Shown: positions 8,076-52,810 of the stretch, piece by piece
Layout: every line of letters starts with the position of its first letter
Numbering within the stretch: the stretch's first letter is position 1
Source: Schmidtea nova
Lineage: Eukaryota
Assembly: GCA_044892505.1 (NCBI GenBank)
Contig: CM097883.1
Span: 289,540,001 to 289,604,000, forward strand
Reading direction: 5' to 3'
DNA: 64,000 nt
Program-made: the position numbers and the translations under genes
Notes under the pieces: model-generated
Databases searched by the model: none
Told to the model about the DNA's origin: nothing
The model's input: only the letters and a program-made list of their open reading frames with translations

Positions 8076-8128
8076 GCAGATCTTTCTTTCAAAATATTTT
8101 GATTACCAGTTCTAGCTGATTGCACTGA

Positions 8129-12259: not shown

Positions 12260-12894
12260 TTTTAACCGAAAATATTAAAGTTACTGATAGTAGCCTGGAT
12301 TCGACGATTCGATCGGGAAGAAATTCGGTCGGGTATCAATCTGGGATTTTTTGGATATAAATTATTTGATATAAATTTTATTCCAGTCTTTTCTATGGCA
12401 GTTTATTCGTTTCTTTAGATAATTAATTTTTTCTGTCTTGTCTTTCCAATTCCTATTTTTAATAATTTATCAAATTGTCTTCTTTTACTTATGCAAATCT
12501 TTGTTTCTTGTAATAATTTTTTATTGTCTTCAATTCCAATTTCTGTGAGCTTCTACAATTCAATTTTCTTAATTATCTTTTGTCGTTGTTTTCTTATCTC
12601 CGTTGACTATAAATTTTCTATCGATTTTTTTTAATTGTCAATATGGCTTACTATAGCTTTTGCTATAGCAAGCCAAATTTGAAAATCAAATTTAAATAAT
12701 AATAATAATAATAATAATAAAAATAAATATTATCATTCACAAGAAAAATGGGGGGCCCCCAGTGACCGCAAAGGCGCCGTCCATAACAATGACGGCGCTT
12801 ACACCAACATACGAGAATAACCATAATCGTAAGATGAATTAAACCATAAAATATGACATTCACATTATTATTATTATTATTATTATTATTCACG

Positions 12895-13573
12895 ACACAA
12901 ACACTTATAACCATAAGTACCATTGATAAAAAAGCGAGATATATAGATGATATCTTTATCACGACAAATAGCAAAAAGGAAGCGGAAGAAATAATTCGTA
13001 TTTTCAACGTGGCACACAATGACATAAAATTTGAGATTGAATACCCGAAAGAAGACAAATCACTCGAATTATTGGATCTGAGAATAAAAATCAACTCAGA
13101 CCCATCAACATATGGGTTCTACAGAAAGTCAGCTCGCAAAGAAATATTTATCCACCAAAGATCAGCACTTCCTCATCAGCAGAAGGTAAACGTCATTAGA
13201 AATGAGAGACAAAGGATAGCTAATAGAGACACAAAGGAAGAGGACAATTCAGTACAGCAAACAATATTTACTGAAGTCCTGCATCGTAATGGATACCATA
13301 ATATTAACGAGATTAACAAAGTAAAATTCAATCAGAGAAGGCAGAAAGACCCACAAAAGGAAAAAAATATTTCTACCTTTGAATTCCTTTCATCAGCGAC
13401 CGAATAAAGTTTATGATCATCAAAGAACTTAATCTCACTGGTCTTCCGATTCGTTTTGGCACAAGCCCTGGAAACACAAGAAAGGAAAATACACATAAGA
13501 TGAGAAATTGCCAAACACCAAAGAAACTATGCTTTCGCAAGAACATTGTCTATAGCATCATGTGTAATAAATG
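12895..13573 (+). mobile_element. 5'-truncated Penelope-like element, RT C-terminus to start of GIY-YIG
   Basis: RYIDDIF, F..E......L.LLDL, YRKS, SALP motifs; NIVYSIMCNKC is cut at 13573 and resumes at 32074. Confidence 0.88.
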
Positions 13574-14350
13574 TGTTGGGGTTAGTATAAAAATCAAAAA
13601 AGTAACAAGAAATATCAAAATATATAAAGTGCAAAAATTAATTAACATTTGTCAAAAATTAAAAATTAATATTTATTGGGGGAAATGGGTATGGTTGAAT
13701 GCCAAATCAAAAGACAAACCCAAAAATAATAATAAAAATTTAGTAAGGGAACCCCAGAGAAAGTTATATAGTAAAAACAAACTAATTAAAATTAATTAAT
13801 CGCTCAATGGGAAGCCCGAGGCAATGGGAAATCCGAGCGCAGAGAGACCCGAGAGATCAAAGTCGGGAGATTGCGCAGGGCAATTAGAGAAAAGCCACCC
13901 GAGCGCAATCACAATAATTTGTTATTTAAACAATCAAGCCCGAGATTGGATAATTTTTAGTTATCGATAAAACTTAATTGTTATTTGCGAAAGGTATAAA
14001 AAGCAGCACAAAGCAGAAGGAAAGGAGAAAAAGAAACTGAAGGAGAAAAACGAGCGGAGAGTTGACGAGCTGAGAGTTAAAACAGAGAGTATTAAAAATT
14101 ACTGAAAACTAACAAAAAGAGAGTTCTTGAGGAATCCAAGAGAGACAAAGCGAGGAAAATATTTTATCATAGAGAATCAAATCCGAATCCGAAAGAGAGC
14201 GCAAATTAGTCAAGAGTGTACGTAACAGAAGTTGTTATTTGTGTTGATCGCTAAATAAATTGTTCTGTGTTGGGTTCATTGATTTCGATAACTAAAGAAC
14301 ACGAGGAGTCAGGTCAGTAAACCGATCTGAAACAGAATAATAACCCAACA
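13574..14350 (+). repeat. 5' LTR of element A
   Basis: TGTTGGGGTTAG...TAATAACCCAACA; TATA box GGTATAAAAAG; AATAAA; paired with 31297-32073. Confidence 0.92.
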
Positions 14351-14353
14351 TTT

Positions 14354-14371
14354 TGGTGAGCCCGACGTGAT
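14354..14371 (+). promoter_or_regulatory. Primer-binding site complementary to tRNA-Trp 3' end
   Basis: TGGTGAGCCCGACGTGAT; its reverse complement ATCACGTCGGGCTCACCA differs by one base from the conserved animal tRNA-Trp end ATCACGTCGGGGTCACCA; 3 nt after the LTR. Confidence 0.88.
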
Positions 14372-14891
14372 TGAAAGGTCGGTAAAAATTGTTATGATAT
14401 TAACCGACGTGAAAGAAAGGTCCGTGAGAGATTTGTGAAAATATTGAATAATTGAAAAATTGTTGCGAGATAAACCGACGCGATCTAAAGGTCGGTGAAG
14501 GATTGAATCAAAGAAAAAGGAGAGATAATTTGCTATAGAAAATTGAATTTGATAAAGAAAGAAAACGATAATAACTGAGTTAATTGAAAAGTCAGTGAGA
14601 AAATTGTTGAAAAGTAAAATCGAATAATTGTAAAAAGAAAAAAAATTGAAAAAGTAAAGAAAACGAGATTAATTGTTGCGATTAAAAAAAGTGCAAATAA
14701 ATTGTATCTGTTGAAATAAAAGAGTAAAAAGCTTGAACAGAAAAGAGAGAATTGATAAAATCCAATTGCCAATAATCAAGTCAAAATTAAAACAAGGTAA
14801 AATTAAAAGTAGTAATATTTTAAAATTTAGACGTGAAAAAGTTGTACAAAAGAAATCTTTTAATCTTCGAAATAAGAAACAAGTGGAAAAT

Positions 14892-16104
14892 ATGGCTAGT
14901 AATTCAAATAATAATGATCAAACACCCATGTCTACAACTCTCACAAACAATGGCAGTGATTTTGCAAGCTGTCAGAAATTGCCAGTAGAGCAATACGGAA
15001 GAGACCCAATTGATTTTGTTGATTTCATGACAGACTACTATATGTACGCCACAGCATACGGATGGAGCCAATCAATTATGGTACAAAGGTTACCGTTATA
15101 TTTGAAAGGTGCAGCAAGAGAAGCTTGGCAACAGATCGATAAAAGACTTATTGCAAATGATCGGACAACGCTAAAAGATGCATTGGCAGCCAAGTTAATC
15201 GGTGGCGATATCAAAAGAATAATGCGCCAAAAATTTTACAACCGAGTGCAAAAGTCAAATGAATCGGTAAGTGAGTTTGCTTATCATTTAACAACTCTTG
15301 CAGAAAAAGCCTTTGAAGCGAAACCAGAACAACCTGAAGTGACGAAACAAGTGAAAGAATTACTACAAGATCAATTTCTGTCAGGAGTTAAAAGAGAAGA
15401 TCAAAAAGCCCTGTGTTATGTAGATTTAAACAATTTCGATGAATTGATTAAAAAGGCCATGAAGATTGAATTGAATCTCAAAACCACACAACAGACAGTA
15501 GAATCCTTTTGCAATTGTCAATGAAACAGGAGATGAATCAGTAGCTCCAGTTAGAGAGAATCGTTTGCAAAAAATCAACAAGTTCATCACCAAAGTTCAG
15601 AGTGAAATTCGAGCCAAGAAAGTCGTCAAACAGCCCAAATGAAGAGAGAGAAAGACCAATTCAATGTAGTTATTGTAAAAGATTGGGACATCAAGTAAAT
15701 CAATGTTGGTTTAAAAACAGCACTCGAAGAAGCCCAAGTCCTGTTCAGTGTCATTATTGCCAACGAAAAGGGCACAGTAATAGTCAATGTTGGTTTAAAA
15801 ATAATTCGCAACGGGGTCAAAGAAAGATGTGGCCAGATTGGTTGAAAGACAATGTCGAAAAAACTTTCAAGAGAAAGGACAACAATGATCAAAGAGCTAG
15901 TAATAATATGCAGTGCTATAATTGTGAAAGGAAAGGTCATATTTCACGAAATTGCTTTGCAAGATCGAGATCTCCGTCAACATCACCATCACCACAGAGA
16001 GATAGAGTAAATCTCCAAGGACAAATTCAATGTCACTCATGCAGAGAGGTATAGACACATGGCTAGATCATGCCCAAAGAATAATGAAAAATTTCAAAGA
16101 CCTA
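14892..16104 (+). pseudogene. gag: Gag of element A: Ty3/gypsy capsid plus four CCHC zinc knuckles (frameshifted, interrupted)
   Basis: Capsid-like RLPLYLKGAAREAW...QKSNESVSEFAYHL; knuckles CSYCKRLGHQVNQC, CHYCQRKGHSNSQC, CYNCERKGHISRNC, CHSCREV/HMARSC. Confidence 0.88.
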
Positions 16105-17040
16105 TGTGGTGTACTCAAAGGTTTATGATCGTTATGTTTTTTTTATTGGCCTTTTTATTGGTATTTTCATCGTTAGTGTAGTCGTTGTGATCTTGGGTGG
16201 TGTATGGAGTGCGGTGGTCCCCCCCGGACGGTTGAAAACTGCGTTGACTTTGATTATTATTATTATTATTAACCCTATGATTATAATTAAAATTCAAAAA
16301 TTGAAAATTGAAAATTAAAAAAAATCAATGATCTAAGCAGCTATAAAATAAAATTTGAAAAATTATTACCAAGGAAGAAAAAGAATCAATCGAAAAAGAA
16401 GCTACTAAAATTAAGTCCTAAGATTAATTCCTAATAATTCCCTAATCTACAAAACCAAGGAAAATAAACCATTGTTATCCATAAACAGTATTATCCCGCT
16501 TGAAAATTGAACAAATACCAAAGATCTTTACGAAGAATAGTAACAAAAGAAATACTTTCTAGTCCACCATCCTCATTCGGACTGCATTTCGCCTACATAA
16601 ACCATTATTATTCATAAACCATTAATATCCATAAACAGTATTATCCCGCTTGAAAATCTAACAAATCCAAAAGATCTTTACAAAGAATAGAAATAAAAGA
16701 AACGATCTCTAGTCCACAATCCTAATTCGGACTGCACTTCGCCGCCATAAACAATTATTATCCAATAACAGTATTATCCCACACTCAAAAAAAAATCAAA
16801 GTAATAGTTCGTGGTTTTTTTCTTTATTGTTCAAATTTTAATAAAATTTGATAACTTGATTAATATTTCTGTTCATTCTATTGTTTTTTTTTTAATTTGT
16901 TATATTTAATTGTAGAACTATCACGCAAAATATATATATATCACGCACCCCAATTGTCCCCACAATTCATTTTTCTTTGGGAGACTCTTTTGGGCCCTTA
17001 CATATTTCCCTCACATAACATTTCTACCTAACAAGATATC

Positions 17041-17208
17041 AACAATAACCCCACAGAGCAAAAACCAAATTTTAACCGATATAATAACCCAAACAACAGC
17101 TACATACAAAATGAAAATTGGTGTTATTTTCACAATAGATTTGGAGACAAGGCGTACAAGTGCAATGCACCTTGTACTTTCAACAATAAAAAGCCGGAAA
17201 ACATATAA
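17041..17208 (+). pseudogene. gag: Gag C-terminal remnant with CHCC motif
   Basis: WCYFHNRFGDKAYKCNAPC = C-x2-H-x9-C-x3-C, typical of the CsRn1 lineage. Confidence 0.8.
17196..17202 (+). promoter_or_regulatory. Candidate -1 ribosomal frameshift site G GAA AAC
   Basis: Heptamer just before the gag stop; the pol frame is -1 and open from here to ATG 17217. Confidence 0.5.
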
Positions 17209-17216
17209 AGTCACCA

Positions 17217-20200
17217 ATGATCGCACCAACCATTGGTGACAGCCAAACATTCACGGTGCACAGCAACGGTATTAACTTTCTCGTTGATACCGGTTCAATA
17301 ATTTCCTTACTGCCGAACTACCTCTACAAAAACACAAAAACAGAAACCCCAAGTTTATGCGCAGCAAATGGCAGCCCTATCAAAACATTCGGAAAACAAA
17401 ACATCGACATTTCCGTCAATAATATAAAATACAAGTGGCATTTCACCATCGCAGAAGTGAAACAAGCCATATTAGGAGCCGATTTCCTCGCAAGATACAA
17501 CTTACTAGTCGATTGTAAAAATGGGAAAATTATATCAAACAATACAAATAACTCAACCACCAAAAGTAACCAATCAACAAAACAAACCAACTGCGACATT
17601 GGAGTGATAACAGCTCTACACGGTGAAATAAAAACGAATGAGCAGAAACTAAAATCAGAAAATAAGGACGGACATATTCCTAATGAAATCATGAAACTGA
17701 TACAAACAATGCCAAACATAACAAACAAACTACAAACAATTAGCGAAACTAAATGCATAACTGAACACGCAATAATAAGCAATGGAAATCCTGTGCATGC
17801 AAAAGTCAGACAGTTGGACAAAAATAAACTCGAAATAACAATGAAAATATTTGACGAATAATTAGAAAATCAAATCGTCAAACATTCTAATTCAAATTGG
17901 TCCTCAGCTCTCATGCTTAAAGAAAAAGCAAATGGTGAATGGCGTGCCTGTGGAGACTACAGAGCACTAAACAGCATCACAACACCTGACAAATATCCAA
18001 TTCCTATCATAAATGATATAATTAACCGATTCAACAAACCCAAACTCTTCAGCAAAATCGACTTGGAAAAAGCCTACCATCAAATTCCCGTCAGAGCGGA
18101 AGACATAAAGAAAACAGCGATCATCACACCTTTAGGCCTCTATGAATACAACAGAATGCCTTTTGGTTTAAAAAACGCTGCGGCAACGTTTCAACGTTTT
18201 ATGGACCAAATCCTGCGAAACCAACGAAATACAGTCGCTTACCTAGACGACATACTTATTGCGTCCACAACCAAATCGGAACACATCGAAAACATAAGAA
18301 ATGTGTTGGAAATACTCAACAAACACAAACTAAAAATTAATACAAAAAAATGCCAATTTTTAAAAACTGAAATACAATTCTTGGGTCACTTGCTGAACGA
18401 ATCGGGAACAAAAGCACTAGAGGACAAGATAAAAGCAATAAAAAACTATCCATTACCCAAAACAACAAAAGAACTAAGACGATTCCTGGGAATGATCAAC
18501 TTTTATCACAAATACATACCAAAATGTAGCGAAATGTTAGCCCCTCTCAACGAATTAAACAAAATAAAGAGAAATATTAAAATAAATTGGAACGAAAATC
18601 TAATAACAGCATTTGAACAAGCAAAGGAAAATCTGAAAAATGCAAGCATCCTAAGCTACCCTAATCAGGAATTACCATACATAGTCAACACAGACTGTTC
18701 AGGACTAGCAATGGGAGGAACTATATTCCAAGAGGAAAACAATGAAAAACGACCCATAGCATTCTTTTCAAAGAAATTGAAAACGCATCAAATGAGATAC
18801 TCTACTTTCGACAGGGAGTTATTAGCGTTACACGACACGATCAGACACTTTCAATACCTACTGGAAGGTAAAGAATTCGAGGTTTATACTGATCACAAAC
18901 CCCTAATAAATGCAATGAATATGAGAAATTCTTCACCAAGACAAATACGACAATTGAATTATATTTCACAATTCAATTGTAAAATTAAATACATAGCAGG
19001 ATCAGCTAATATAAGTGCAGACGCATTATCAAGAATCGAAACTGATATCAACGCACTAAACATACCACCAATCATAGAGTTAGAGAATCTAAAAACTTTA
19101 CAAAAACAAAACATAACAGAGTCTCCGAGGATGAACTCGCTCAGATTGGAAGAAATAGACGGAATCTGGTACGACACTTCAAACGACAACAATAAAAGAA
19201 TCATGGTACCGCCTGAATTCCGCAAACGGTACCTACAGAAATACCACAACCTTTACCACCCAGGAAACAAAGCCACATAAGAACTTTTGCATACCAAAGT
19301 AATCTGGCCTTACATGAGAAGGGACGTAAAAACTTTCGTTAGAAACTGCCCACAGTGTCAAAAGAACAAAATAACGAAAAAACAATTTAAAACAACTGTG
19401 GTACAATTTCCCAGTTCGGAACCTTTCGAAACAATATACATCGACATTGTCGGTCCACTACCACCCAATAACAAACACAAGTATTTGTTAACAATAATAG
19501 ATCGCAAAACAAACTGGTTTGAAGCCATACCCATAAAGGAAATATCCGCAGCAAAGATTTGCAACAAATTAGAATTAAATTGGTTCGCACGGTATGGTTG
19601 CCCAAAAACAATAATCAGCGATCAAGGTAGACAATTTGAATCCGACATTTTTAAAGGACTGTGTAATAAATACAACATTACGAAAAACAGAACAACAGCG
19701 TATAACCCCCAATCAAACGGAAAAGTGGAAAGATTACACCGATCTATAAAACAAGCAATCAGAACAAAAACGAACAATAACGATAACTGGTTGGAAAAAT
19801 TACCAGAAATTTTGATAGGATTGCGCAACAACCCTTCAAGCATCGAACAACAAAAGTCCTAGCCAATTGGTATTTGGACACAACACCAACCTGCCAAACT
19901 TAAAAGACGAAACAGAAAACAAAGTAGAGACAAACTACAAATTCAACGAACCACAAATGACCAAACTAAAAAACACCCTGAAAAACAAAAACAGTCAACA
20001 AACACAAAACCAAACCAGACTAATAATAGACAAAGTCTTAATAAAGAAACCTTTCACAAGTGGTTTCGAAACAAAATACGAAGGTCCATACAAATTACTA
20101 AATTTGTACAAAAACGTCGGCACAATCGTAAAAGACAACAAGTCAATTAAAATAAACATACGCCGATTAAAACCATTTTATGAAAACAAACTAACACCAT

Positions 20201-20352
20201 CCAACATTGACCACAACCAAAACCCTCCAGACAAAACCCCAACAAAACAAAAACACATCTCATTCAACTCCAAAAACTCAATAAAACTATTCGACAAGGA
20301 CACAATAATCACACCCCTATACAAAAAACGATATAGCGAATGCCTCAAATAA
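17217..20352 (+). pseudogene. pol: Pol polyprotein (protease, RT, RNase H, integrase) with two stops and one frameshift
   Basis: LVDTGS; KIDLEKAYHQ, MPFGLKNA, YLDD; TDCS/ELLA/YTDH; HHCC zinc finger, IDIVGP, SDQG, VERLH; TAA at 17859 and 19278, frameshift near 19860. Confidence 0.95.
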
Positions 20353-21521
20353 AAATACATAAACATACACAAGCAAACACAGGCACAACATAGCTAAATG
20401 TACAGTTTTTAGTCGTTTGTAAATATGTAAATTTTTGGTTAAAACGTTATAAACAACAAAACAAATACAAAAACAAAAAAAACAAAATAAAGCAAAACAA
20501 CAAAAATAAGTCGTCAACATTGTTAATCTGTAAATTTTTCGGTATGTTTGTTAACCTCCGGTTTTAAAGGGGGAAGTTGTGTGGTGTACTCAAAGGTTTA
20601 TGATCGTTATGTTTTTTTTTATTGGCCTTTTTATTGGTATTTTCATCGTTAGTGTAGTCGTTGTGATCTTGGGTGGTGTATGGAGTGCGGTGGTCCCCCC
20701 GGACGGTTGAAAACTGCGTTGACTTTGATTATTATTATTATTATTAACCCTATGATTATAATTAAAATTCAAAAATTGAAAATTGAAAATTAAAAAAAAT
20801 CAATGATCTAAGCAGCTATAAAATAAAATTTGAAAAATTATTACCAAGGAAGAAAAAGAATCAATCGAAAAAGAAGCTACTAAAATTAAGCCCTAAGATT
20901 AATTCCTAATAATTCCCTAATCTACAAAACCAAGGAAAATAAACCATTGTTATCCATAAACAGTATTATCCCGCTTGAAAATCGAACAAATACCAAAGAT
21001 CTTTACGAAGAATAGTAACAAAAGAAATACTTTCTAGTCCACCATCCTCATTCGGACTGCATTTCGCCTACATAAACCATTATTATTCATAAACCATTAA
21101 TATCCATAAACAGTATTATCCCGCTTGAAAATCTAACAAATCCAAAAGATCTTTACAAAGAATAGAAATAAAAGAAACGATCTCTAGTCCACAATCCTAA
21201 TTCGGACTGCACTTCGCCGCCATAAACAATTATTATCCAATAACAGTATTATCCCACACTCAAAAAAAATCAAAGTAATAGTTCGTGGTTTTTTTCTTTA
21301 TTGTTCAAATTTTAATAAAATTTGATAACTTGATTAATAGTTCTGTTCATTCTATTGTTTTTTTTTAATTTGTTATATTTAATTGTAGAACTATCACGCA
21401 AAATATATATATATCACGCACCCCAATTGTCCCCACAATTCATTTTTCTTTGGGAGACTCTTTTGGGCCCTTACATATTTCCCTCACATAACATTTCTAC
21501 CTAACAAGATATCAATAATAA

Positions 21522-23335
21522 CCTATATTAAAGAAAATCAGATTTCAAAATGATAAATCAAAATTTGATAATGTGGCTTTTGTACAACCCGATGATGTTA
21601 ATGAAAGAATTGAAAAAGAGATAAAGCAAATGAGTAAACGATTGGATCAATTAATGTGTAAATTTGAATCAGTCGAAGAAACTGATAATCATATGATGTA
21701 TGAATCGCAATCAGAAGGGTCAGAGACAGATATAATGAAGGAAGTAGTAAATGATGAATTAGAAACAGAAAAAATAAAAATGATTTTGTCGAGAACAAAA
21801 ATTTTAATGGAGTCAAAAGTAAAAGAAACGTCAAAAATAATGACAATGCTAAAGAAATTGAGTCAAATGCCGATGAGTATACAAAAATTAAAAAGTGTAA
21901 TTGAAATGTGTGCTGATTATCATAATGAGAATTCAAAAAATAAAACTGAAACTGAGAATATAATGAAAATATTTGGAAAATTGTTCAGAGAGAAAACATG
22001 GTTAGATTTTATTGTTATTGATGTCGTAGATGAAAGTAATAATGATGTGATGTGTATTCGTTGTGAAATAGAAGAGTGCGTAAAGGAATTTAAAAAGAGA
22101 TTAGAGGAGAATAGCGGAAAATGGATAAAGGAAGTAAAATTTAAAAATAGATGTTTAAATGATGAGGAAATATTAATAGATTGTGGTCTTATACCTGAGA
22201 ATAAAAATAAAGTACAGATAATATTTATGACTAAAAATAATGAAGTAATAAAAGAAGATTCACAGAAAATTTGTAGGGAATTAAAGGATATTTTGTATAG
22301 AGGGGAATCAAAGGAAGTTATTAGAAAATTAAAATTGATAGAAGAAGTTGAAATTGAGAGAGATAGTAAACTACATAAATGAAAAATCAAAATATAGAGA
22401 AAATTTAAGAAATTTAGTACGACGATTAGGCAAAGAACTTAGAAAAACTACAATCGAATTGAATCCGTTTACAATAGCATTAGATTATGAAGATTATAGT
22501 AAAACTGAATATATATTAGAGCATTGGTGCACAAAGGTTCGGAAATTAAGAAAAAGAGCTGCTGAAAGAATAGGAAAAGATGGAATTATTATATTTATGT
22601 CTGAAGGAGAAGAATTAGACGATGATGAATATTTATTTGACTTAGGATTTGTACCACAAGAGTTAAATGAAAATGGATATTTACATTCCGATAGCGGAAA
22701 TGGATATTTGATAAATTGTGTAACAGTGATTAAAGAACAGAAATTTGAATTAATAGACAAATCTGATGGATCAAATACAGACAGAGAAAATGATGATGAA
22801 AATGAGATTAAAGAAGATAAAAAAATAAGCGAAATGGTAAATGATAACGAGGAAACCAAGCATAATAACAAAGATGAGTATAAAGTAAGAAAAGTGCAAG
22901 AATTTGAGGAACTTAAAGGCAAAATGAATAATGAAATTAATACTATGAAGCCTAGAACTATATGAAATAAAGAAAGGTCTTGTGCGATTGGAACAAGAAG
23001 TAGATAAAACCAAAGCATTATTAAAGAGCTTGACTAAAGCAGTATACCCAATGTGTGAAATTGAGATAGATGAAAAATATGAATTGGGAGGAATAGTAAA
23101 TGAAGTGAGAAACAGACTCCCTAGTATCATGCAAAGATTTGGTAAAATTGAAAAATTTTGTGACAAAGATGTAATCGAGAAATTAATACAATCCCACGGC
23201 CAGTGGAAGTTATGCCGGAAAATTGAAACTAATTTAAAACTACGGTACAAAATAATAAAAAGGCCAGAACAGTTATCATTCATGCTAATAGATGCAAAAA
23301 AGTGCCAGTTATGGATGACAATAAATATCAGTTAA
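21522..23335 (+). pseudogene. Gag C-terminal extension of element A: repeated helical (TFIIS-N-like) and ubiquitin-like modules
   Basis: Removing element B joins ...RSCPKNNEKFQRP|ILKKIRFQNDKSKFDNVAFVQP in frame with ORF 21573; UBL-like segments ~22008-22226 and ~22465-22728; continuation through frameshifted ORFs 22348 and 22982. Confidence 0.65.
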
Positions 23336-24646
23336 GATTAAAAAAGAAAAAGTCGCAAGATGAAACAATCAGCAAGCAAAGGGGTTCAAAAAACTCCGCA
23401 TCATTGGGATATATCAATAAAGTATTACTGATTGCAACAGTAATGATAATAAATGTTTTGGGAACAAATTCAACTAAAATATTTCCAATGTATGCAATAA
23501 AAAGAGTTCCACTTTTAGAAAAAATTGATATATATGCAACATGAACCCAAATGGTATGGGTCTATCATTGTGAACCGAGAGACGAAATAAAAATAAATAA
23601 TTTATTAAATTATTTTGATCCACCAATAAAGTTGAATTTTAACAACAATATGTACGTTGTGCATGATTTAACAATGAACTACAAATATCCCTGGTTAATA
23701 ACACAACAACAATATCAGGAAAATAATACAAAAATACAACAGCAAATTGAAATGGAAATTTGGACAAAAAAATTAAATAATAAAGTATCAATAGAACCAA
23801 TAATAAAAGGTATCAATGTATATTGGGAACCCCAGGAATCCCAACAAGTGAAAATTATTTTCGAAAAGTACACGATCAATACGCTAAATCTCAAGAAACC
23901 TTATGTACGTTATGTTAATTTAGAATTGTTTAAAACATATAATCTCGTAATTCATTATTACGAAAAAAGCATTACGGGAAAATGGTACTGAAATTGATAA
24001 TCAATGGTTCTAGATTTATTCCACTCAACAATCGGTGACATTGGAGAATGAAACAAATCGAGTCATCTTTGAATATAAAAATCAGAAATTAAACGCATCT
24101 CGACAAGCGGAAGTTAATAAAAAAGTTGAAATTCATTATTCGGGCAATATTAACAAGTAACATTTCATATCAAATTTTAAATTTTCAAAGATTAAGATCT
24201 ATATCGAATTCAAAATTTGTGATGATGAAAATCAAATATTATCGATTTGCTTCTCATTCCAAACAATGGCAGATCACTCTTGTCAAAACAAAGTTGTTAG
24301 AGTTTCATGTAACATTACTGATATTCATGATTAAAAAAACAATTATCTTTATAAAAATATGACTAAAGAATTTCAAACGACAATTATTCCTACTCATATC
24401 TATGATGTGACAATTCTAAAAAACGTATCATCTTCATCTAATGACAATGCAAAAACATGTATCATTTTATCAACTATTGTTATTAGTGCAACACCATTTC
24501 TCATTGTAATTCTTCTCTCACTACTGATTTGCTTTAAAAGAATGAACAATCATGCAGTACGTCAATCCAAGACCGTGGATTGTCTACGAGGAAACGTTTG
24601 TATAGTGAGACATTTAATATTGCATGCAATTATAATAATTTATTAG
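23302..24646 (+). pseudogene. Type I membrane glycoprotein (env-position ORF), disrupted
   Basis: Hydrophobic signal-like KVLLIATVMIINVLG; beta-rich ectodomain with INVYWEP and several N-x-S/T sequons; TM CIILSTIVISATPFLIVILLSLLICF followed by KR; several stops and a frameshift. Confidence 0.6.
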
Positions 24647-24936
24647 TACGGTAATAGTATGAACTTTCTTTTATCCATATTTATGTGATTTATTGTAAAA
24701 TTTGCGCTTTCGATCGGAAACGGATTTGATTGGTTGAACAAAAATATTATTAAGAATATAAGGGAATACCTAAATTAATAAATTAGAATAAAATTGAAAA
24801 TCAAATAGGTAATTAATTTTATTAAATATTTATTATTTATACCGTTATCAGCCAGGATGGTATACTCAAAGTACTCCATCTTGGCGATAACGTCAAATTT
24901 TAAAATTAAACAAAATTTAAAATTATAAATATTTTA

Positions 24937-26178
24937 GTGATGGAACAGATTCAATGGATCCGAGATATTTATGATGCCCACCTCAAACTGCATCGAAACT
25001 ACATGGGACAAAGTCCATTTAAAATCAATGAAAATACAAAAATACCAAATTATTTAAGAATTGACGACAGAAGAATGAAAACAAGAATCCTGAGAGTAAG
25101 TAAAAATGGAGGAGCAAAGCTGATGGAAGATAGCAAAGTAGAAAATGAAGAGGAATTCACGTTACATGTGTTGAAAGAGAAAGTTGAAATGATAAATGAA
25201 AATCAGCAGATATGGTGGGAAATGCACAAAGGCTCATCGTGGAGAATGCGAGAGGAAGCATTAAAGAAGAAGCTTAGATCGGCGAAAAAAGACGCACTAA
25301 TCGCGCTGGAAACAAGATTCAGAAACAACAAAGAAGTTCCACAAATTGACTCAGAATTGCCATCATATTCTACATTACTGCCAATATCAGAAAATATGAT
25401 AAAGAGAAGATTATCTTTCATTAGAAAAGAATTAAACCAGGAAGAAATAATAAGCAAGATATTGTTTATTGACGCGGAATACGACACATCAGAAAGTGGA
25501 CAAATGGTGCCATTGTGAATTGCCATCATGAATTATTTCGGGAAAATAATTAAAAATATATACCTCACGCCGAGAGGAAAAATGCGACACTTCCAATCAC
25601 GAATACATGGCATCACGGAAATTGCTAGTAGGAACCAATGCGATCAATATTTGGAAATGAAGCAAATCCAGAATCTAACTGTTGGAAAAATATTAGTTGG
25701 CCATGATTTGCATGCGGAATTGCAGTATTTGAAAATCTGGACAATTCAATTGTTTGGCATTCGGGATTTGTCCACGGCAAAGGCACTTCAATTACAAGGA
25801 ATATCGAGAAAAGGCGAATTCTTCAAACTAAAAACTGTGGTCGAAGAAATGCTTGGAGAACAAATGCAAGTGCGCATCCATTCAGCCCTAGAGGATGTCA
25901 AAAACATTCGGAAAATATATCTGAAGATTGAAAATTCATGGATTGATGATATCCAAATTCCCAAAGCAACCCCATCAAAGAAGTATTTATTGGAGGAATA
26001 TCGAAGAGCTCATACCATAAACACAATGCCAACGACGAGCACGGCGATTAGGAAAACAGTTGTCCTTTCCGAAGGAATTGAGAAAATGGCAGAGCAAATC
26101 GATTTGACGGGATATGGAAATTTATTTGGAAATTGGGAAATTGAAGTTGGCAACAGAAAATTATCCCGAGGCAATTGA
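24937..26178 (+). pseudogene. DEDDh 3'-5' exonuclease (REX4/ISG20-like) with N-terminal extension, one in-frame TGA
   Basis: ExoI LFIDAEY (25471), SRIHGIT, ExoII ILVGHDLHAE, IRDLS, ExoIII HSALED (25879); ORFs 24937 and 25528 share a frame separated by TGA 25516-25518. Confidence 0.85.
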
Positions 26179-27879
26179 AGAAAACGTTGAGGTAAACACC
26201 GGTTCGGCCATCGCAAGAGTTTTGATATCATTCGAAAATGGACCGATTTGGCACCTGGAAAATAGAAAAAGAAAAATATTCGCAAATAGAAGCAAATGAA
26301 ACCATAACGGTGAATGGGATTGTCTACCGAAGAGAAAAGACATTTATCAGATAAAAAAGTGATTATGGAAAAATTGAATTAAAATTAGACTAACAATATA
26401 TGTATATATATATTCTAATTGATTAATAAATTTTATATTGAGACTTTGTGATTTGGCATCCCATCCCAAAATAAGTAAAATAAATCAAAAAAAGGATGAA
26501 TGATTGATATCAGCAAAATAACCCTTATGTATTATGAAAACATTAATGTTCGATTATAACGAAACTGAAAAGAATGAGTACTACTAATAAAATTATTATN
26601 NNNNNNNNNNNNNNNNNNNNNNNNNNNNNNNNNNNNNNNNNNNNNNNNNNNNNNNNNNNNNNNNNNNNNNNNNNNNNNNNNNNNNNNNNNNNNNNNNNNN
26701 NNNNNNNNNNNNNNNNNNNNNNNNNNNTTTATTTATTATTAATATCTTGATTATGGTTATGATCATGAAATGTTTGTAAGAATTTAATAATAATTTATTA
26801 ATGATTTAAATGTTTTTTTGCCTTATAAATGATAGGTAACTCCATTTGAAAAAAGTTAACAAATTTATTTGGGTTTAATTAATAATATAATAATGATTTA
26901 AATGCTTTTTGCATTATAAATGTTAGGTAACTCCATTCAAAATAAGTCAATAAATCTTTTAGTATTTTCTTGGGCAACGCAACGACTAACACGCATATGC
27001 TTTTTCTGCTATATTGACGTATTTCCAATCAAGTAACAAGAAATCAAGCCTTTGGACACTGTGCAATCATGGAGACCTTGTAGACTTTATTCAAAAAAAA
27101 TTATAATAATGCATTAGTAGACTATTTATTAACTTTTAAATACTATATGACATCCAGCGTATAGGTATGATTGGTCAATAGTTTATAATAATAATTTACA
27201 AAGAATAAATATATTCTAAGATATGAATTACAGTTCGATTAGAAATCTATTTGTATTGATTATATGCTCGTGGAATGAAAAAAACTTTACGTCAGCAAGC
27301 GTTTGTTGATTACAAAGTTTATTTTTTACAAATATTATTAAATAATTTATTAAGAATAAATAAACGAATAATAATTACATTTTGAATAGAAATTCTAAAA
27401 TAATCAATTTTATATATGATGTAGCTGTCTCATTTTCGGGCAGCTGGACAAATGAAAAAGTTCTCAGATCATTCATTTCTCGAGGAAAAAGTAATTTTCC
27501 TGAGCAATTTGCCGGAGACGCCTTTTTAATATCGTGGACATTTTTCCAACTGCTTCTTTTCAGTGTGTCTTATTCTTTATTAGAGCCTGCAAATTCGTTG
27601 AGAAATAAATCAGAACTATATAGTTATCGAATTATTACACATAACAGATAATTCTTTTTTCAAATCGTAAATATCGTAAATGCCATTTTGTTTTTTGTTG
27701 ATAACTGTTGGATTTGTTGGTGGAGTCTATATTGTAATTATTAAAATGTAATTGTCAATAATAATTATTACCAGTCCAATTGGTGTAATAAAATGGGGTC
27801 TTCTAGTCATGTTGGAGTTTCCTCCGTTCAGAGTTGCGTGGGCTGGGTGCCTTTGCCTTGATCTTCTTTCTCCGTTCAA

Positions 27880-28233
27880 AATCTGTAAAAAATGAAATTT
27901 AAAAAAAAACGAGGCTTTAAAAAGAGAGAGGTGGCCAATCATAAATAAATGTTCTGCGATTGGCCAGCATCTCTTACTTTCTGGCAGCTCACAAAAAGAT
28001 TAATCGGCAATGCCGACAAAAATAAAGTGAAAATTTGATAATTGGCTATGCCGATTTCGATAATTGCCAACAATTAAAAGAGCTGAAAGCTCAATGATGA
28101 TAATTAACAAAAATCGGCAAAGGCCGATCAGATTGTCCAAAATTATAATCGGCAATGTCGATTTGAAAAAAGTAAATATCGGTAAAACCGATTTATTATC
28201 ACCAGCAAAGCTGAGTTATTAATTACCTATTAA

Positions 28234-28240
<7 letters not shown>
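27880..28240. repeat. Repeat unit with inverted CCAAT pair and TCGGY-n3-RCCGA palindromes, copy 1
   Basis: Matches 29450-29780; followed by an (ATT)n tract. Confidence 0.7.
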
Positions 28241-28313
<73 letters not shown>

Positions 28314-29449
28314 TTTATCAAAGAAAGTATTATTATCATAATTATTATCATAAATATTATCAAAATTACATTATTATAATTTGCTCATTTTATTATTATC
28401 ATGTACACAAGTAAAATATTGCAAAATATTTGTGTTATAACTTTCTAATTATGGACAAAACGTATATGCACTTTAGAATATTTTATTAAATTAAGGATGT
28501 ATTGTTTCTTAAATAATCCAGTAAAGCTAAGGTAAATTACAATTTCATTTAGACAACCTCAGTAAAAGGATTTCGACACATCTTTCATCATCTAAAACCG
28601 TGTTAATGACGTTTTGAATATTACCATAAAATAATTTTGTAGAACGATATCACTCTCGCCCAAAAAAAAATCATATTCCAATGGGTTTGTATCCTCAAAA
28701 TAAACTTTTTATAATCTGATTAATATAAAAGGGCTTATTATAATGATTATAATGGCTTCAGAACTGGAATGTACAAAAATAACGCGAAATCAAAAAAAAG
28801 CTATTAAATAGCAAATGTTTATTAAAAGGGACAAAAAATAGAACTTCCATTAAGAGTCTGAACCCCCATAAGGCATAAAGGCACATCCATGAGATTGACA
28901 GAATATGTGCGCCGCTAAGTCAAGGCCGCCCCAGTGTTGGCGAAATATTGATAACCTACAACTCCGCAGATGTTTCCACAGCCAGCACCCACAATTGGTT
29001 TGACATAGCTCCTCATACGGGAGTATTGAGATATCGGGAGTTAATTTTTGTGAGAAGGAAATATCCGGTGATCTGGGTGATAAGTGATCATTCTTCATGT
29101 GAGGGACGTTTTCATCTTTTTCGGAGTGCTGACAGGGAAGTGGTTGCAGTATTTTTGGTTCGGTGTTGAGGTGCCTGATTGTTGAAGGTTTTTGGTTGTT
29201 GTTGGAGGTGTTCGGCGACGTTGGTATAGATTGGTCGTTCCTCATGTGGTGGGGACTTTCGTAGTGTTCGTGGAGATATCTGGTAACCAGTAAAAACATA
29301 TTATTAAAATATTTGAAAGCTACAGCCAAAAAAAAGTTTACAGAAATTCAGCGATCTTGTTAGAAATAGTCATTTCTCTTGTGGTGAGAGTTGTAATAGC
29401 GATTTTCAGATATTGGTGGACAAAATAAAATTGCACATTTTTCAGAGGA

Positions 29450-29780
29450 AATTGTAAAAAAATGAAATTAAAAAAATGAGCCTTAAAAAGAAAGAGAAGC
29501 GGCCAATCACGAATAAATGTTCTGTGATTGGCCAGCAGATATTTAATTCTTCTGCTATTTGGAAATGTTGAGCCGAATGCTTAATTAGTCAAGTAAACAA
29601 TCAACAATGCCGACAAAATTAAAAGATCAATTAAATCGGCAAAGCCGATTAAATAAACAATGAATAGAGCTAAAAGCTCAGAAATTATAATTATCGGCAA
29701 AGCCAAACTAAATAAATAAAATCTCGGCAATGCCGATTTCAAAAAACAAACAAAATATGTCGGCAAAACCGATTTATTAA
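29450..29780. repeat. Repeat unit with inverted CCAAT pair and palindromes, copy 2
   Basis: GGCCAATCACGAATAAATGTTCTGTGATTGGCC; matches 27880-28240. Confidence 0.7.
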
Positions 29781-29953
29781 TTATTATTATTATTAGTGTT
29801 ATTATTATTATTATTATTATTAAAATTATTTATTAATTATTATTATTAGTATCAAATATTGTTATAATTATTATTATTAGTAGTAAAGTGTAGTTACTAT
29901 AATTATTATAATTTATATTATCGATTATAAAAGAGACTAATTAATAATTATTA

Positions 29954-29990
<37 letters not shown>

Positions 29991-29994
29991 CATT

Positions 29995-30265
29995 ATCATA
30001 TTGTGACGCTACTTACATAGGAAAAACACATAGAACTTTTCGCACCCGACTTAATGAACATACTAAAATCAAAACCAGTAATTATTACGAACACTGGGAA
30101 AAAGTACATAAAACAACTCCATCTATAGAAGAAACAAAATGCCAGATCCTACAAGAGGGATTCAAAAATTCATTACAAAGATTAGCTTCCGAGACTTTTT
30201 TCATAAAAAAATACAAACCGTCCATCAACATTCAATTCGCACAAAAAAAAATTAAAATAAAATAA
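29995..30265 (+). mobile_element. Penelope-like GIY-YIG endonuclease 3' fragment
   Basis: CDATYIGKTHRTFRTRLNEH ... RLASETFFIKKYKPSIN. Confidence 0.85.
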
Positions 30266-30353
30266 ATTTTTTCATCCAATAAAATCATTATAAAATATTA
30301 AAAAAATAATTAAGGCTACTATTTAGGATTAAGTAAATATAACGATAGAAATA

Positions 30354-30446
30354 CACACTTGATAAAGGCTGTGCCGAAATATTGTGTTATTGTTTATAAA
30401 AAAAAATTTTGATCTATAGTCATTATGAGAATTATTGATAATAATA

Positions 30447-30512
<66 letters not shown>

Positions 30513-31192
30513 TTTATTATTGGTGTTATTAGTGTCATAAGTATTATTAAAACATTATTAAAAATAGAAATATCACTATTATCATCATTGTTATTATTAA
30601 TATTATTGTTGCTATTAATAACATTAGTGTTATTATTATTATTAAGGTTNNNNNNNNNNNNNNNNNNNNNNNNNNNNNNNNNNNNNNNNNNNNNNNNNNN
30701 NNNNNNNNNNNNNNNNNNNNNNNNNNNNNNNNNNNNNNNNNNNNNNNNNNNNNNNNNNNNNNNNNNNNNNNNNNNNNNNNTCTCACCATTGTTATATTAC
30801 TATTATTATTATCGTTAATTGTTGGTGTTGTTGTCACCATCATTATTAAATTATTGATACCACTGGTATAACCATCTTCGCCATTATAACATTTAGATCA
30901 TTGTAGTATTATTACGATTATTACTATTTACAAGAAAATTATTATTAGTACTAGCAACATTAAGTCAATGTCATTAATAGTATGGCAATATTATTATGTA
31001 GCAGAGTAGTTGGTATTGAGATTACTCTACCATCTTATTTATAATCTAAACTATTATTATTATCATAATTATCTTTTTTCACCTTTGATCTTTTTTTATT
31101 ATTATTATCAATAATTCTCATAATGACTATAGATCAAAATTTTTTTTTATAAACAATAACACAATATTTCGGCACAGCCTTTATCAAGTGTG
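30354..31192. mobile_element. MITE/foldback element with ~100-bp TIRs, TA TSD and (ATT)n core
   Basis: TA|CACACTTGATAAAGG...CCTTTATCAAGTGTG|TA; microsatellite-rich core with a gap. Confidence 0.8.
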
Positions 31193-31296
31193 TATTATAT
31201 ATATATTATATATATTAATGGTATTGAGTGGACTCTACCAGTCTAATAAATAAAAAGATAGATTCGAGGACGAATCTTAAATAAAGGGGTGAGATA

Positions 31297-32073
31297 TGTT
31301 GGGGTTAGTATAAAAATCAAAAAAGTAACAAGAAATATCAAAATAAATAAAAGTGCAAAAATTAATTAAAATTTATCAAAAATTTTAAATTAATATTCAT
31401 GGGGGGAAATGGGTATGGTTGAATGCCAAATCAAAAGACAAACCCAAAAAAATAATAAAAATTTAGTAAGGGAACCCCAGAGAAAGTTATATAGTAAAAA
31501 CAAACTAATTAAAATTAATTAATCGCTCAATGGGAAGCACCGAGGCATTGGGAAACCCGAGCGATGAGGAAAGCTTGAGCGCAGAGAGACCCGAGAGATT
31601 AAAGTCGGGAGATTGCACAGGGCAATTAGAGAAATGCCACCCGAGTGCAATCACAATATTTTGTTATTAAAACAATTAAGCCCGAGATTGGATAACTTTT
31701 AGTTATTGATAAAACATAGTTGTTATTTGCGAGAGGTATAAAAGGCAAAGCAAAGCAGAAAGAAAGGAGAAAAACGAACGGAGAGCCGACGAGCTGAGAG
31801 TTAAAACAGAGAGTATTAAAAATTACTGAAAACTAACAAGAGAGAGATCTTGAGGAATCCAAGAGAGACAAAACGAGGAAAATATTTTATCATAGAGAAT
31901 CAATTCCGAATCCGAAAGAGAGCGCAAATTAGTCAAGAGTGTACATAACAGAAGTTGTTATTTGTGTTGATCGCTAAATAAATTGTTCTGTGTTGGGTTC
32001 ATTGATTTCGATAACTAAAGAACACGAGGAGTCAGGTCAGTAAATCGATCTGAAACAGAATAATAACCCAACA
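31297..32073 (+). repeat. 3' LTR of element A, preceded by PPT AAAGGGGTGAGA (31283-31294)
   Basis: Colinear with the 5' LTR, with multiple substitutions and two ~17-18-bp indels. Confidence 0.92.
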
Positions 32074-32300
32074 AATGCGAAGAAATTTATATCGGAAACA
32101 CCCTTCACACTTTGCATCAAAGAATGGTGGAAAGTCATCTGTATATAGACATCTTCACCAATGTCAGACAGAAAATAAGGAAAAAATAATATCAGTGAGA
32201 ATATTGACAAGCGAAAATGACGAAAAAATCTCAGACTGAAAGAAGCTATTCTCGATGTAGTGGTCTAAAAGAATTGATATTAAAGCTTGTCTCAAAATAT
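32074..32300 (+). mobile_element. Remainder of the Penelope-like GIY-YIG domain
   Basis: (C)EEIYIGNTLHTLHQRMVESH ... ILTSENDEKNLRLKEAIL continues the frame cut at 13573. Confidence 0.85.
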
Positions 32301-32761
32301 CAAAGGAACATGGTCTTCTTCAAACTTCCACTCTATTCAGTGCTATTAGATTTTCAACAATTCATTTTAATGACAATTTAACTCCAAAAACAATCAAGTT
32401 GCTAATAATTGAAGCTACAGAATGGTCTTGAAATCATGTATGTTGAAAATCGAACTTATCATGATATATTTGCTCAATTATCTTACAATTGAGAAATTCC
32501 AAGTCAAAAACATTTATGTAATTTAACCATAAATGTTCTCAAAATTTTATATATTTTATAAACTGGTTATGGTATTGGCTGATCTTACGTTCTGAATTGT
32601 TTTATTTATCTTTTTTTTTACTTTAAAGAAAATAATATTGTGCTTGTTTAAATATTTGACATTAATTATTATTTTGGGGTATATTTTGGAATTGGAATAA
32701 AAAATACATTTTTTGAGTTAGAATTGTTCAATTTTTAAATATATAAATTGAATTACAAAAA

Positions 32762-32958
32762 ATGGACAAGAAGATTTTCAATTTGAAATTAGCTCTATGT
32801 CTAACTGCTGCTACATTTCTTTTCAACTTAGTAACATTCGTTTCACCATACTGGATGGTAGCTAGGCCAGAACATCCTGGCCAATTTGTTAGACTAAGTT
32901 TATGGGTAGCTTGTTTCGATAATTATACACATCCAGAAGATTATGCTTCCAAAATGTA
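32762..32958 (+). CDS. Claudin/PMP22-like (invertebrate septate-junction claudin type) N-terminal exon
   Basis: TM1 followed by SPYW...LSLWVACFDNY.HP.DY...Y; the rest of the listed ORF reads into a MITE; may be an exon or a disrupted gene. Confidence 0.7.
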
Positions 32959-32982
32959 TAAACAATTTATAAACAATAAATA

Positions 32983-33357
32983 CACACTTGATAAAGGCTG
33001 TGCCGAAATATTGTGTTATTGTTTATAAATAAAAAAAAATTTTGATCTATAGTCATTATGAGAATTATTGATAATAATAATAAAAAAAAGATCAAAGGTG
33101 AGAAAAGATAATTATGATATTATCATTATTATTATTATCATCATTATCATTATCATAATTATCTTTTTTCACCTTTGATCTTTTTTATTATTATCAATAC
33201 TTCTCATAATGCTGACTATAGATCAAAATTTTTTTTTATAAAAATAACAATATTTCGGAACAGCCTTTATCAAGTGATAAACACACTTGACAAAGGCTGT
33301 ACCGAAATATTGTGTTATTGTTTATAAAAATAAAATTTTGATCTATAGTCAGCATTA
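32983..33357. mobile_element. Short palindromic MITE copy (32983-33276) plus adjacent third TIR (33282-gap)
   Basis: Forward and reverse arms of the CACACTTG TIR separated by a short (ATC/ATT) core. Confidence 0.8.
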
Positions 33358-34659
33358 NNNNNNNNNNNNNNNNNNNNNNNNNNNNNNNNNNNNNNNNNNN
33401 NNNNNNNNNNNNNNNNNNNNNNNNNNNNNNNNNNNNNNNNNNNNNNNNNNNNNNNNNNNNNNNNNNNNNNNNNNNNNNNNNNNNNNNNNNNNNNNNNNNN
33501 NNNNNNNNNNNNNNNNNNNNNNNNNNNNNNNATGTTTTATCGTCATAAACATTGATCGATAATCTAAAATAGAAATAAATTTAACGAATACCAAATAGTT
33601 CCGAACATGCAAATATATTCAATATTTTTGGCATTGTATCCATTCTGAGATAAAATTTTGAATCGTTAATGCTACAATTATTTCTTTTTTCGAATTTATT
33701 GTTTACCAGGAAAGCACATTATTATCCAAACTAAACAGAGGCCCGAATAAATCTCTGTGTAATGGACCTAATAGGAATAACTACAGTGGGCCAAACGAAA
33801 AGTTAATAAGAAATAACCGTGAGAACCTGGCAAAAGGCTCTAATCCTGCCAATCGCTGTGGCCCACAATCCGATGTCAAGATTCAAATATATACCTAAAA
33901 GATAATTCGGTTGTCTCTAATTTGGCAAAATTGATTTCAATATATATATATATATATATCTATTCCTTTTTGTTACTTTTGCTAGATTGAAATAAATTTT
34001 TACAATTTCATTTTTATTATTATTATTGCCAGCTGTAACCTTTGAAAAGTCAAGTTATGTACAAGTTATGTTCACTTTCGCATCAGATTGAACCATTTTA
34101 GAAAAACAAAAGTTTCAAGTATTATTATTATTGTTTGAAGATGGGCGTAGAATAGGGGTTTTAAAATTAAAATATTATACAGTGGGAAATGGAAGGTACA
34201 GAATATTAAATTAAATTTATTAAATATTTTATTAAATTTTAAATATTATGTCATTCTTTTGTTTTTGTAAAATTCTCCATGTTTTATAGTCTATTTAATT
34301 TAACCTTTTAAATTCATTTAACATTTTTCTAAATTTACACATGTTTTTATTTACCATAAAAATCTCTTGAAAATTTCAGTATAAAAAAGGTTATTGTATT
34401 TAGTTTAAGATTTTATAAAAATTAAAATTGTATAAAAATTTTATTCTAAAAAATTTTACTTTTAAATTTACCGACTCAGAGATTTCCCAAAAAATTTCGT
34501 ACTTATTTTTTAAATTTTCATATTATGTAATTTCAACTCTCACATTGCTTTAGTTTTACCATTTTTTTATTAAATTTTAAATATTATGTCATTTTTTTGT
34601 TTTTGTAAAATTCTCCATGTTTTATTGTCTATTTAGTTTAACCATTTACATCTATTTAA

Positions 34660-52329: not shown

Positions 52330-52810
52330 CCTAATTGGCCCATCAACAAATTATACTGTTGCTCTTTCTATCAGACCCGAGTGGATTTTTTCCAAATGGA
52401 TTTGCGCAATCTTCCGCCTTTGATCTCTCAGGTCTCTAATGCGCTCAGTTTTCTTCATTCTTCGGGTTTCTTATTGTCTTGGACTTCCCATTGAGTGATT
52501 AATTAATTTTAATTAATTTGATTTTACGATATAACTTTCTCTGGGGGTCCATACTAAATTTTTATTATTATTTTTGAATTTGTCTTTTGACTTAGCGTTC
52601 AACCATACTCATTTCCCCCGATGAATATTAATTTTAAATTTTTGATGATTTTTTGCACTTTCATTAATTTTGATATTTTGCTTTTATTATTATTATTTTT
52701 TCTTTGATGATATTAATATCAAACTTAGCATACCTTCCTTTTTTGTTTGAGATTCGTCCTAAAATCGATCTAATTAAAATGGTAGAGTCTAGTCAATACC
52801 AGAAAATATG
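52330..52810 (-). mobile_element. Diverged fragment of family A (3' UTR, PPT and start of LTR)
   Basis: Reverse complement aligns to 31215-31640 (GGTATTGA..GACTCTACC, GGACGAATCT, CCCAGAGAAAGTTATA). Confidence 0.8.

Follow-up and report, generated by a model that had tools for sequence, protein, structure and literature searches.

A probable deletion-broken copy of an env- and pol-bearing Ty3/gypsy family in Schmidtea nova, and the cargo of its sisters

The presence on contig CM097883.1 of Schmidtea nova (assembly GCA_044892505.1) of a long terminal repeat (LTR) retrotransposon with no pol gene of its own raises the question of whether such an element is a lineage in its own right or the remains of an ordinary one. 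The element lies at positions 13574–32073 of a stretch of 64,000 nucleotides (289,540,001 to 289,604,000 of the contig), hereafter called the window, and all its features described below are on the forward strand. The initial annotation had seen in it a giant, pol-less element with virus-like cargo in place of pol, namely ubiquitin-like (UBL) modules, a membrane protein and an ISG20-like nuclease, and had proposed a non-autonomous lineage that forms particles and relies on Pol supplied in trans. Our analysis leads elsewhere: the window copy is, very probably, a broken member of a Ty3/gypsy family that bears both pol and an envelope gene (env), from which about 5.8 kb has been lost. The copy itself is ordinary genome debris; its cargo belongs to the family, and a sister family does contain pol-less copies.

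Both ends of the element are preserved and agree with the initial annotation. Two 777-bp LTRs (13574–14350 and 31297–32073) start with TG and end with CA, with AATG target-site duplications (TSDs) on both flanks (13570–13573 and 32074–32077). The primer-binding site (PBS, 14354–14371) is the complement of the 3' end, plus CCA, of the genome's own tRNA-Trp(CCA), and a polypurine tract (PPT) is found at 31280–31296, so that the hallmarks of Ty3/gypsy elements are present. The LTR and the nuclease region were searched against the 1.25-Gb genome, where only the top-scoring candidates were scored, and gave at least 3716 and 2031 first-look candidates, respectively, figures that are lower bounds and not copy numbers. 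The UBL region and the nuclease are about 9.85 kb apart in sister copies versus 4.0 kb in the window. Six first sisters, picked for two matches 9.85 kb apart and thus biased toward full length, measure 16.2–18.9 kb, have LTR pairs 99.0–99.6% identical and 4-bp TSDs, and all contain the ~5.85 kb that is absent from the window between 23186 and 23221. A less biased sample consisted of 20 copies taken at even steps (about every seventh row) down the 150 best nuclease matches, a choice that favours young copies. Protease (PR), reverse transcriptase (RT), RNase H (RH) and integrase (IN) were found upstream of the nuclease in 18 of them, RH and IN in one, and no family sequence within 10 kb in the last; none had the layout of the window. 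The pol-bearing relatives for which the initial annotation recommended a search are thus the rule, and the order PR-RT-RH-IN holds in the family and has been deleted from the window copy. The same annotation had named, as findings that would speak against it, a normal pol in other family members together with copy-specific cargo: sisters do carry a normal pol, but their cargo is not specific to one copy.

The break itself can be read at 23186–23225, where a 40-bp remnant of env lies between a deletion of ~0.57 kb and one of ~5.23 kb, with 2-bp microhomologies. Together the two deletions removed most of a Bcl-2-like domain, env, PR, RT, RH and IN. Allowing up to two mismatches, a 27-base pattern of the junction occurs once in the genome, and among 40 scored candidates the 221-base junction is fully covered by the window only. 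None of the ten copies with the closest LTRs has the window layout: nine contain no internal genes within ~9.6 kb (eight are solo-LTR-like, without a PBS, and one more is cut at its 3' end), and the tenth runs from the PBS and gag through the Bcl-2-like domain into env, beyond the window's break. A deletion common to other copies was rejected on the single junction match and on its absence from the 20 sampled and the ten closest-LTR copies. The two LTRs of the window copy differ at 32 of 757 aligned bases (Kimura two-parameter distance 0.044), a divergence of 4.4% compared with about 0.4–1% in sisters, so that this insertion is several times older than theirs; env and pol were likely lost after it.

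Two stretches of N inside the element, at 26600 (128 nucleotides) and 30650 (131 nucleotides), suggest another explanation, namely that the missing pol is an artefact of the assembly, either misjoined or hidden in these stretches. We regard this as very improbable. Both stretches are short and, since they lie in the 3' non-coding part, they cannot hold pol, whose place at 23186–23225 is free of N; moreover, matching TSDs flank the LTR pair and microhomologies of the kind found at the junction are typical of real deletions. Two points nevertheless weigh against a one-off deletion: the junction is known from the assembly alone, in which a local error is possible, and a small, diverged subfamily with the identical deletion could escape the scoring of top candidates.

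The state of the remaining genes bears on the non-autonomous lineage initially proposed. All of them carry stops or frameshifts. The gag gene (14892–16104; Pfam Retrotrans_gag E 4e-5, zf-CCHC), encoding capsid and CCHC knuckles, is split over several frames, and an unrelated Ty3/gypsy element (16105–21521) sits inside its fourth knuckle region. The N-terminal remainder of the polyprotein resumes at 21522–23186 with a coiled region, two ubiquitin-like domains and the start of the truncated Bcl-2-like domain, with frameshifts. Past the junction come a broken segment (23224–24602) comprising the integrase tail, a signal-like segment, a predicted FN3-like ectodomain, a transmembrane segment and a short tail, and then open reading frame (ORF) 2 (24922–26390), where frameshifts and a stop at 25516–25518 interrupt the nuclease. 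A microsatellite-rich 3' non-coding region (26391–31279), which contains a local duplication and, probably, insertions of later date, completes the element; the corresponding region measures 2.2–4.9 kb in sisters. The Bcl-2-like domain, the env remnant and the breakage of every remaining gene had been overlooked by the initial annotation. In favour of a pol-less lineage, the window contains no family pol, both LTRs, the PBS and the PPT are intact, and a comparable lineage exists in sister family D (see below). On the other hand, the junction is unique in the genome, the layout recurs neither in the 20 sampled sisters nor in the ten closest-LTR copies, the deletion cuts into the Bcl-2-like domain and integrase and leaves a scrap of env, and no retained gene is whole. 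It is therefore very unlikely that the window copy represents such a lineage, although the idea holds for family D.

The nested element, flanked by TSD CCTA, has LTRs 99.2% identical and a PR-RT-RH-IN region with stops; its gag is mostly absent. It accounts for 5.4 of the 18.5 kb of the window copy, and with a natural unit of 16–19 kb the family does not merit the term giant. The nested pol is only 34–39% identical to that of the family (34% at the lowest), and no PR, RT, RH or IN of the family occurs in the window outside it, as had been noted. In an RT-RH tree built from the sequences of the present analysis only, it is the outgroup. This position and the low identity led us to reject it as a helper. 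We could find no clear PBS in the nested element, and a short C/H-rich motif ahead of its protease presumably recalls the CsRn1 clade. As for the primer of the families, tRNA-Trp(CCA) genes repeated in tandem, with a unit of ~282 bp, form an array from about 128,022,000 of G000:C3; the array pattern has 1955 matches on a single strand, the first 100 listed of which fall in the array, and the same tRNA primes these element families.

What, then, does an intact member encode? Sister copies contain a single frame of ~3,200–3,400 residues in the order Gag-UBL-UBL-Bcl2-like-Env-PR-RT-RH-IN-membrane protein, followed by a separate exonuclease ORF; the cargo hence flanks pol and does not replace it. 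Gag has the four CCHC knuckles initially annotated, here in one frame. A natural frame of 3,062 residues matches Pfam Monjiviricetes_fusion (E 7e-84) at 1110–1769 and then RVP, RVT_1, RT_RNaseH and rve. The env between gag and PR is of the gB/chuvirus type (Monjiviricetes_fusion, E 7e-84 and 2e-89), which strengthens the earlier virus-like reading. A conserved domain of ~145 residues between PR and RT has no dUTPase match in PDB or Pfam, and no Pfam match to MATH, BIR or ankyrin was found in the family frame. The membrane protein is in frame after integrase in five of the six sisters. The same genome contains sister families A–D, which are 60–72% identical over most of the polyprotein and share the gene order; three copies of family D have one frame of 3,232 residues. 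More distant relatives are found in the metagenome contigs L027 and L028 (RT-RH 59% identical), where PR-RT-RH-IN is followed in frame by a second aspartic protease and ankyrin repeats, and further downstream by the C-terminal membrane protein and two nuclease ORFs, of which one is degenerate and the other Pfam-positive; L028 has a UBL-like ORF in addition. Both contigs (L027:1-6660 and L028:3-7106) begin at the protease, so that the env region lies outside them. None of 28 candidate stretches from viral contigs matched. Four contig runs of unspecified type span all 30 bins of the family frame, which has no bearing on transcription. Two further copies are of structural interest: in a family A copy in the G000:C1:92179712 region an internal deletion has brought the nuclease into one frame of 2,633 residues with the end of integrase, and at G000:C1:547590001-547630000 at least three family D copies, over 99.6% identical, lie head to tail with a period of 15.86 kb.

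The UBL modules, membrane protein and ISG20-like nuclease first noticed in the window are thus real and family-wide, although part of the domain assignments are weak. Pfam ubiquitin and Bcl-2 matches were each obtained in three of five family members, below the curated cut-offs (best E 7e-5 and 0.0015, respectively), and PDB profile matches agree weakly with both. The protein that follows integrase combines a signal-like segment and a transmembrane segment with several N-glycosylation sequons. Its ectodomain may be FN3-like, which is a lead given by ESM (0.88) and by weak Pfam Fn3 matches in a relative. In seven of eight aligned relatives its tail ends in (S/T)-x-V, which we read as a putative class I PDZ ligand. 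Homolog searches gave no matches for the membrane protein or, against long proteins, for the UBL-env region; the UBL-Bcl2 region had no usable match in the ESM Atlas, and a PDB profile search with the membrane protein led nowhere.

To assess conservation, the proportions of non-synonymous (pN) and synonymous (pS) differences were taken from families A–C, not from each family for each domain, with synonymous sites near saturation. These values were 0.19 and 0.83–0.89 for the nuclease core, 0.23–0.27 and 0.62–0.65 for the second UBL region, 0.27–0.29 and 0.66–0.69 for the membrane protein, and 0.31 and 0.62–0.78 for the Bcl-2-like domain. Between families, the non-synonymous divergence of all cargo is far below the synonymous one and above that of RT and env. 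By this measure purifying selection appears to have kept the cargo conserved in five families. The resemblance of the nuclease to cellular ISG20/REX4 proteins could also be explained by copy-specific capture of host genes that play no role for the element. The signature of selection speaks against such captures, as do the place and order of the cargo, common to the five families of the genome and to the distant metagenome relatives, and a 493-residue frame open in most of the 150 best nuclease matches; this explanation is hardly credible.

ORF2 corresponds in sisters to this frame of 493 residues, and hundreds to thousands of young copies have an open nuclease ORF. Residues 177–345 have their best sequence matches in ISG20L2 (E 6e-8) and ISG20 (E 6e-7), and the fold aligns with ISG20 over 159 residues (Z 18.2, root-mean-square deviation 2.4). 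D185, E187, E267, H321 and D326 occupy the catalytic positions. Among 67 aligned proteins these positions are D in 50, E in 50, D or E in 25 each, H in 48 and D in 47. ORF2 is accordingly predicted to encode a DEDDh exonuclease of the ISG20/REX4-like type with an RNase H-like fold, followed by a tail. The 130 N-terminal residues, folded alone from 47 sequences, gave a model of a double-stranded beta-helix (DSBH) with a pLDDT of 89. Its fold matches are AlkB-family proteins and cupins (best Z 9.2, root-mean-square deviation 3.4 over 125 residues), and the 50 matches listed all seem to belong to cupin/DSBH proteins; vaccinia C16 also matches, in the middling range (Foldseek E 2e-4). Conserved polar residues are Y17, N43, H82 (43 of 47), S106 and E130 (38 of 47). 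Because it has no HxD iron motif and its fold matches are middling, this predicted domain is likely a non-catalytic or ligand-binding cupin. Of 152 homologues taken from the database, 51 have it, and 42 of these 51 had served to build the profile itself.

A pol-less, env-less lineage that keeps gag and the nuclease does exist in family D, as several independent insertions. Three of ten fetched D copies (G000:C1:193934427-193944941, that is L057-L058, together with L059-L060 and L063-L064) measure 7.9–10.5 kb, have LTR pairs 99.7–99.8% identical over the aligned part and lie in different flanks. They encode a gag-like ORF of 488 residues without knuckles, an integrase tail with a membrane segment and an open nuclease ORF, and contain neither env nor pol. 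The gag-like ORF has 146 matches in the genome, with 46 to 100% identity, and the 488-residue frame is open in 13. It lies 2.0–2.2 kb from a nuclease core in 14 of its 22 best matches; the remaining eight have no partner among the 150 nuclease matches scored. The C-terminal half of the ORF gave no convincing match. Identity to autonomous D copies is 99% for the nuclease and 98% for the LTR but 48% for the capsid part, where synonymous sites are saturated. Selection within the gag of the subfamily is weak (dN/dS 0.47–0.54, three pairs). These contrasts suggest an old parasite lineage that would refresh its ends from its helper by recombination.

How these parts might work together can be proposed from Ty3/gypsy biology, according to which the family would copy itself by tRNA-Trp-primed reverse transcription and integrate with 4-bp TSDs. 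Hydrophobic segments at about residues 1102, 1666 and 3022 of the polyprotein, plus the C-terminal protein, could act as internal signal sequences threading it into the endoplasmic reticulum with alternating cytosolic and lumenal parts. The gB-type fusogen and the FN3-like protein would then face outward and be released by signal peptidase and the element protease, and the outcome would be enveloped particles that could pass between cells. For ORF2 we tentatively favour, as the least certain part of our proposal, an active RNase of 3'-5' polarity that would bind RNA through its cupin-like domain and degrade silencing or immune triggers derived from element RNA, while the Bcl-2-like and UBL domains would keep the producing cell alive.

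This counter-silencing role is ranked ahead of trimming of ends during replication, which we consider rather unlikely, and of a binding or decoy role. In a replication role, ORF2 would trim the 3' end of the element RNA, the tRNA primer or the cDNA ends. ISG20/REX4-like enzymes process structured RNA 3' ends and the nuclease core is the best conserved part of the cargo, both of which suit such a role, but most Ty3/gypsy elements replicate without a nuclease of this kind. A replication role has also been proposed for the rotifer DEDDy ORFs discussed below (PMC5408684). It fits poorly with a nuclease that travels with Bcl-2-like and UBL modules, which point to host interference, and with its retention by the pol-less D subfamily, to which a helper could supply it in trans; relatives with one apparently intact and one degenerate paralogue look more like a decoy or binding function. 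Several observations also count against our own proposal. The second catalytic Asp is a Glu (E267) in the family, with Glu and Asp each in 25 of 67 aligned proteins, and several homologues have lost catalytic residues; the cupin domain has no conserved HxD iron motif and a middling fold match (Z 9.2). The UBL, Bcl-2 and FN3 assignments are sequence-based, with sub-threshold profile matches and one ESM lead (0.88), and the functions of the cargo and the particles are predicted from sequences and models. The parts may also be combined into one picture. In it, env-bearing retrotransposons of planarians would encode a cupin-ISG20-like RNase dedicated to counter-silencing, and their particles would display two surface proteins cut from the one polyprotein, namely the gB-type fusogen and, for attachment, the FN3-like protein with its PDZ-ligand tail; the nuclease would be of such value that the old D parasite subfamily, lacking env and pol and with its own divergent gag, renews it and the LTRs from the helper by recombination. 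As a whole we hold this combination to be improbable.

To our knowledge, transposon-encoded suppressors of host silencing have rarely been identified in animals. Planarians, moreover, serve as a main model of how PIWI controls elements of this kind in stem cells (PMC8532177). For these two reasons the family is worth attention, in particular the nuclease ORF, the second membrane protein and the parasite subfamily of family D. A pol-less subfamily that keeps gag and the nuclease offers a ready-made comparison of which cargo an element must carry itself. The window copy also calls for caution, since repeats read from a single copy can lead one to mistake a deletion for a new design.

The surroundings of the element are themselves rich in mobile sequences. 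Fragments at 12850–13600, 29948–30400, 31050–31220 and 32980–33360 of the window are RT-like (Pfam RVT_1 E 0.001) and endonuclease-like, with inverted terminal repeats, and resemble Penelope-like elements; one of these fragments appears to be the site into which the LTR element inserted. On the reverse strand, 52310–52801 is part of a degraded LTR from a related family (73–75% identical). The window also contains a DDE_Tnp_1_7 transposase fragment (7510–8088), a claudin-like exon with a weak Pfam match (32747–33028), an intronless DUF4735 ORF (50116–51168, E 1.5e-28) and the beginning of another gag-protease ORF (62588–64000).

Are elements of this kind already known? The initial annotation knew of no description of the combination, and in part this does not stand. 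As far as the accessible text of PMC13524379 describes them, six GAG-ENV-POL elements of Schmidtea mediterranea (Smed_errantivirus_1-6), with an HSV/gB-type ENV, are likewise multi-copy Ty3/gypsy elements with a gB/chuvirus-type env between gag and pol. Counted by eye, 17 of the first 106 residues of the env stretch given for Smed_errantivirus_1 are unlike those of the family frame, ~84% identity and thus a close kinship. The main text of that paper, figures apart, does not mention an exonuclease, ubiquitin, Bcl or Burro, and its table gives neither LTR nor PBS for these errantiviruses. Burro, or GYPSM1, is closer in cargo: the accessible part of PMC6431247 describes one huge polyprotein in which Gag with CCHC knuckles, Ubi2/SUMO-like and BCL2-like domains and env precede PR-RT-RH-IN in frame, with mononegavirus-like fusion protein matches for env; involvement in apoptosis and ubiquitination is suggested there. 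The single Gag-UBL-BCL2-Env-Pol polyprotein is common to both, with the UBL and Bcl-2 matches of our family below Pfam cut-offs. In the same source, Burro exceeds 30 kb and its polyprotein has 4,873–5,140 residues, versus 16–19 kb and ~3,200–3,400 residues here; it has MATH, BIR and ankyrin motifs, for which the family frame has no Pfam match (ankyrin occurs in the relatives L027 and L028), and a dUTPase-like domain between PR and RT, where the ~145-residue domain of the family has no dUTPase match. That part of PMC6431247 attributes to Burro neither an exonuclease nor a C-terminal membrane protein; the extended data and the Repbase entry of Burro might list certain accessory ORFs already. The parts of PMC11410931 and PMC8532177 considered add no domain detail. 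Literature searches, with Burro extended data, Repbase and figures outside their coverage, showed none of three features to be reported for these elements: an ORF that fuses cupin and DEDDh nuclease, a membrane protein after integrase, and a pol-less subfamily keeping a nuclease.

For the nuclease, the nearest parallels are of two kinds. The bdelloid rotifer LTR retrotransposons Juno and Vesta also have a separate exonuclease ORF of the DEDD superfamily downstream of pol; in the portion of PMC5408684 consulted, this stand-alone ORF3 is of the DEDDy type, and a DEED variant of the motif is noted. That enzyme is RNase D-like, in contrast to the ISG20/REX4-like DEDDh nuclease with a predicted N-terminal cupin fold described here, which stands alongside env rather than replacing it, and the two were likely captured independently. 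Human ISG20L2 and ISG20 are the closest to the ORF2 core in sequence (E 6e-8) and fold (Z 18.2), but ORF2 is encoded by the element and has an additional N-terminal DSBH domain, a C-terminal tail and a Glu at the second Asp. Taken together, the architecture is that of a known planarian class in a more compact form, to which ORF2, the membrane protein after integrase, the Trp PBS and the pol-less subfamily add features beyond the Smed errantiviruses as described.

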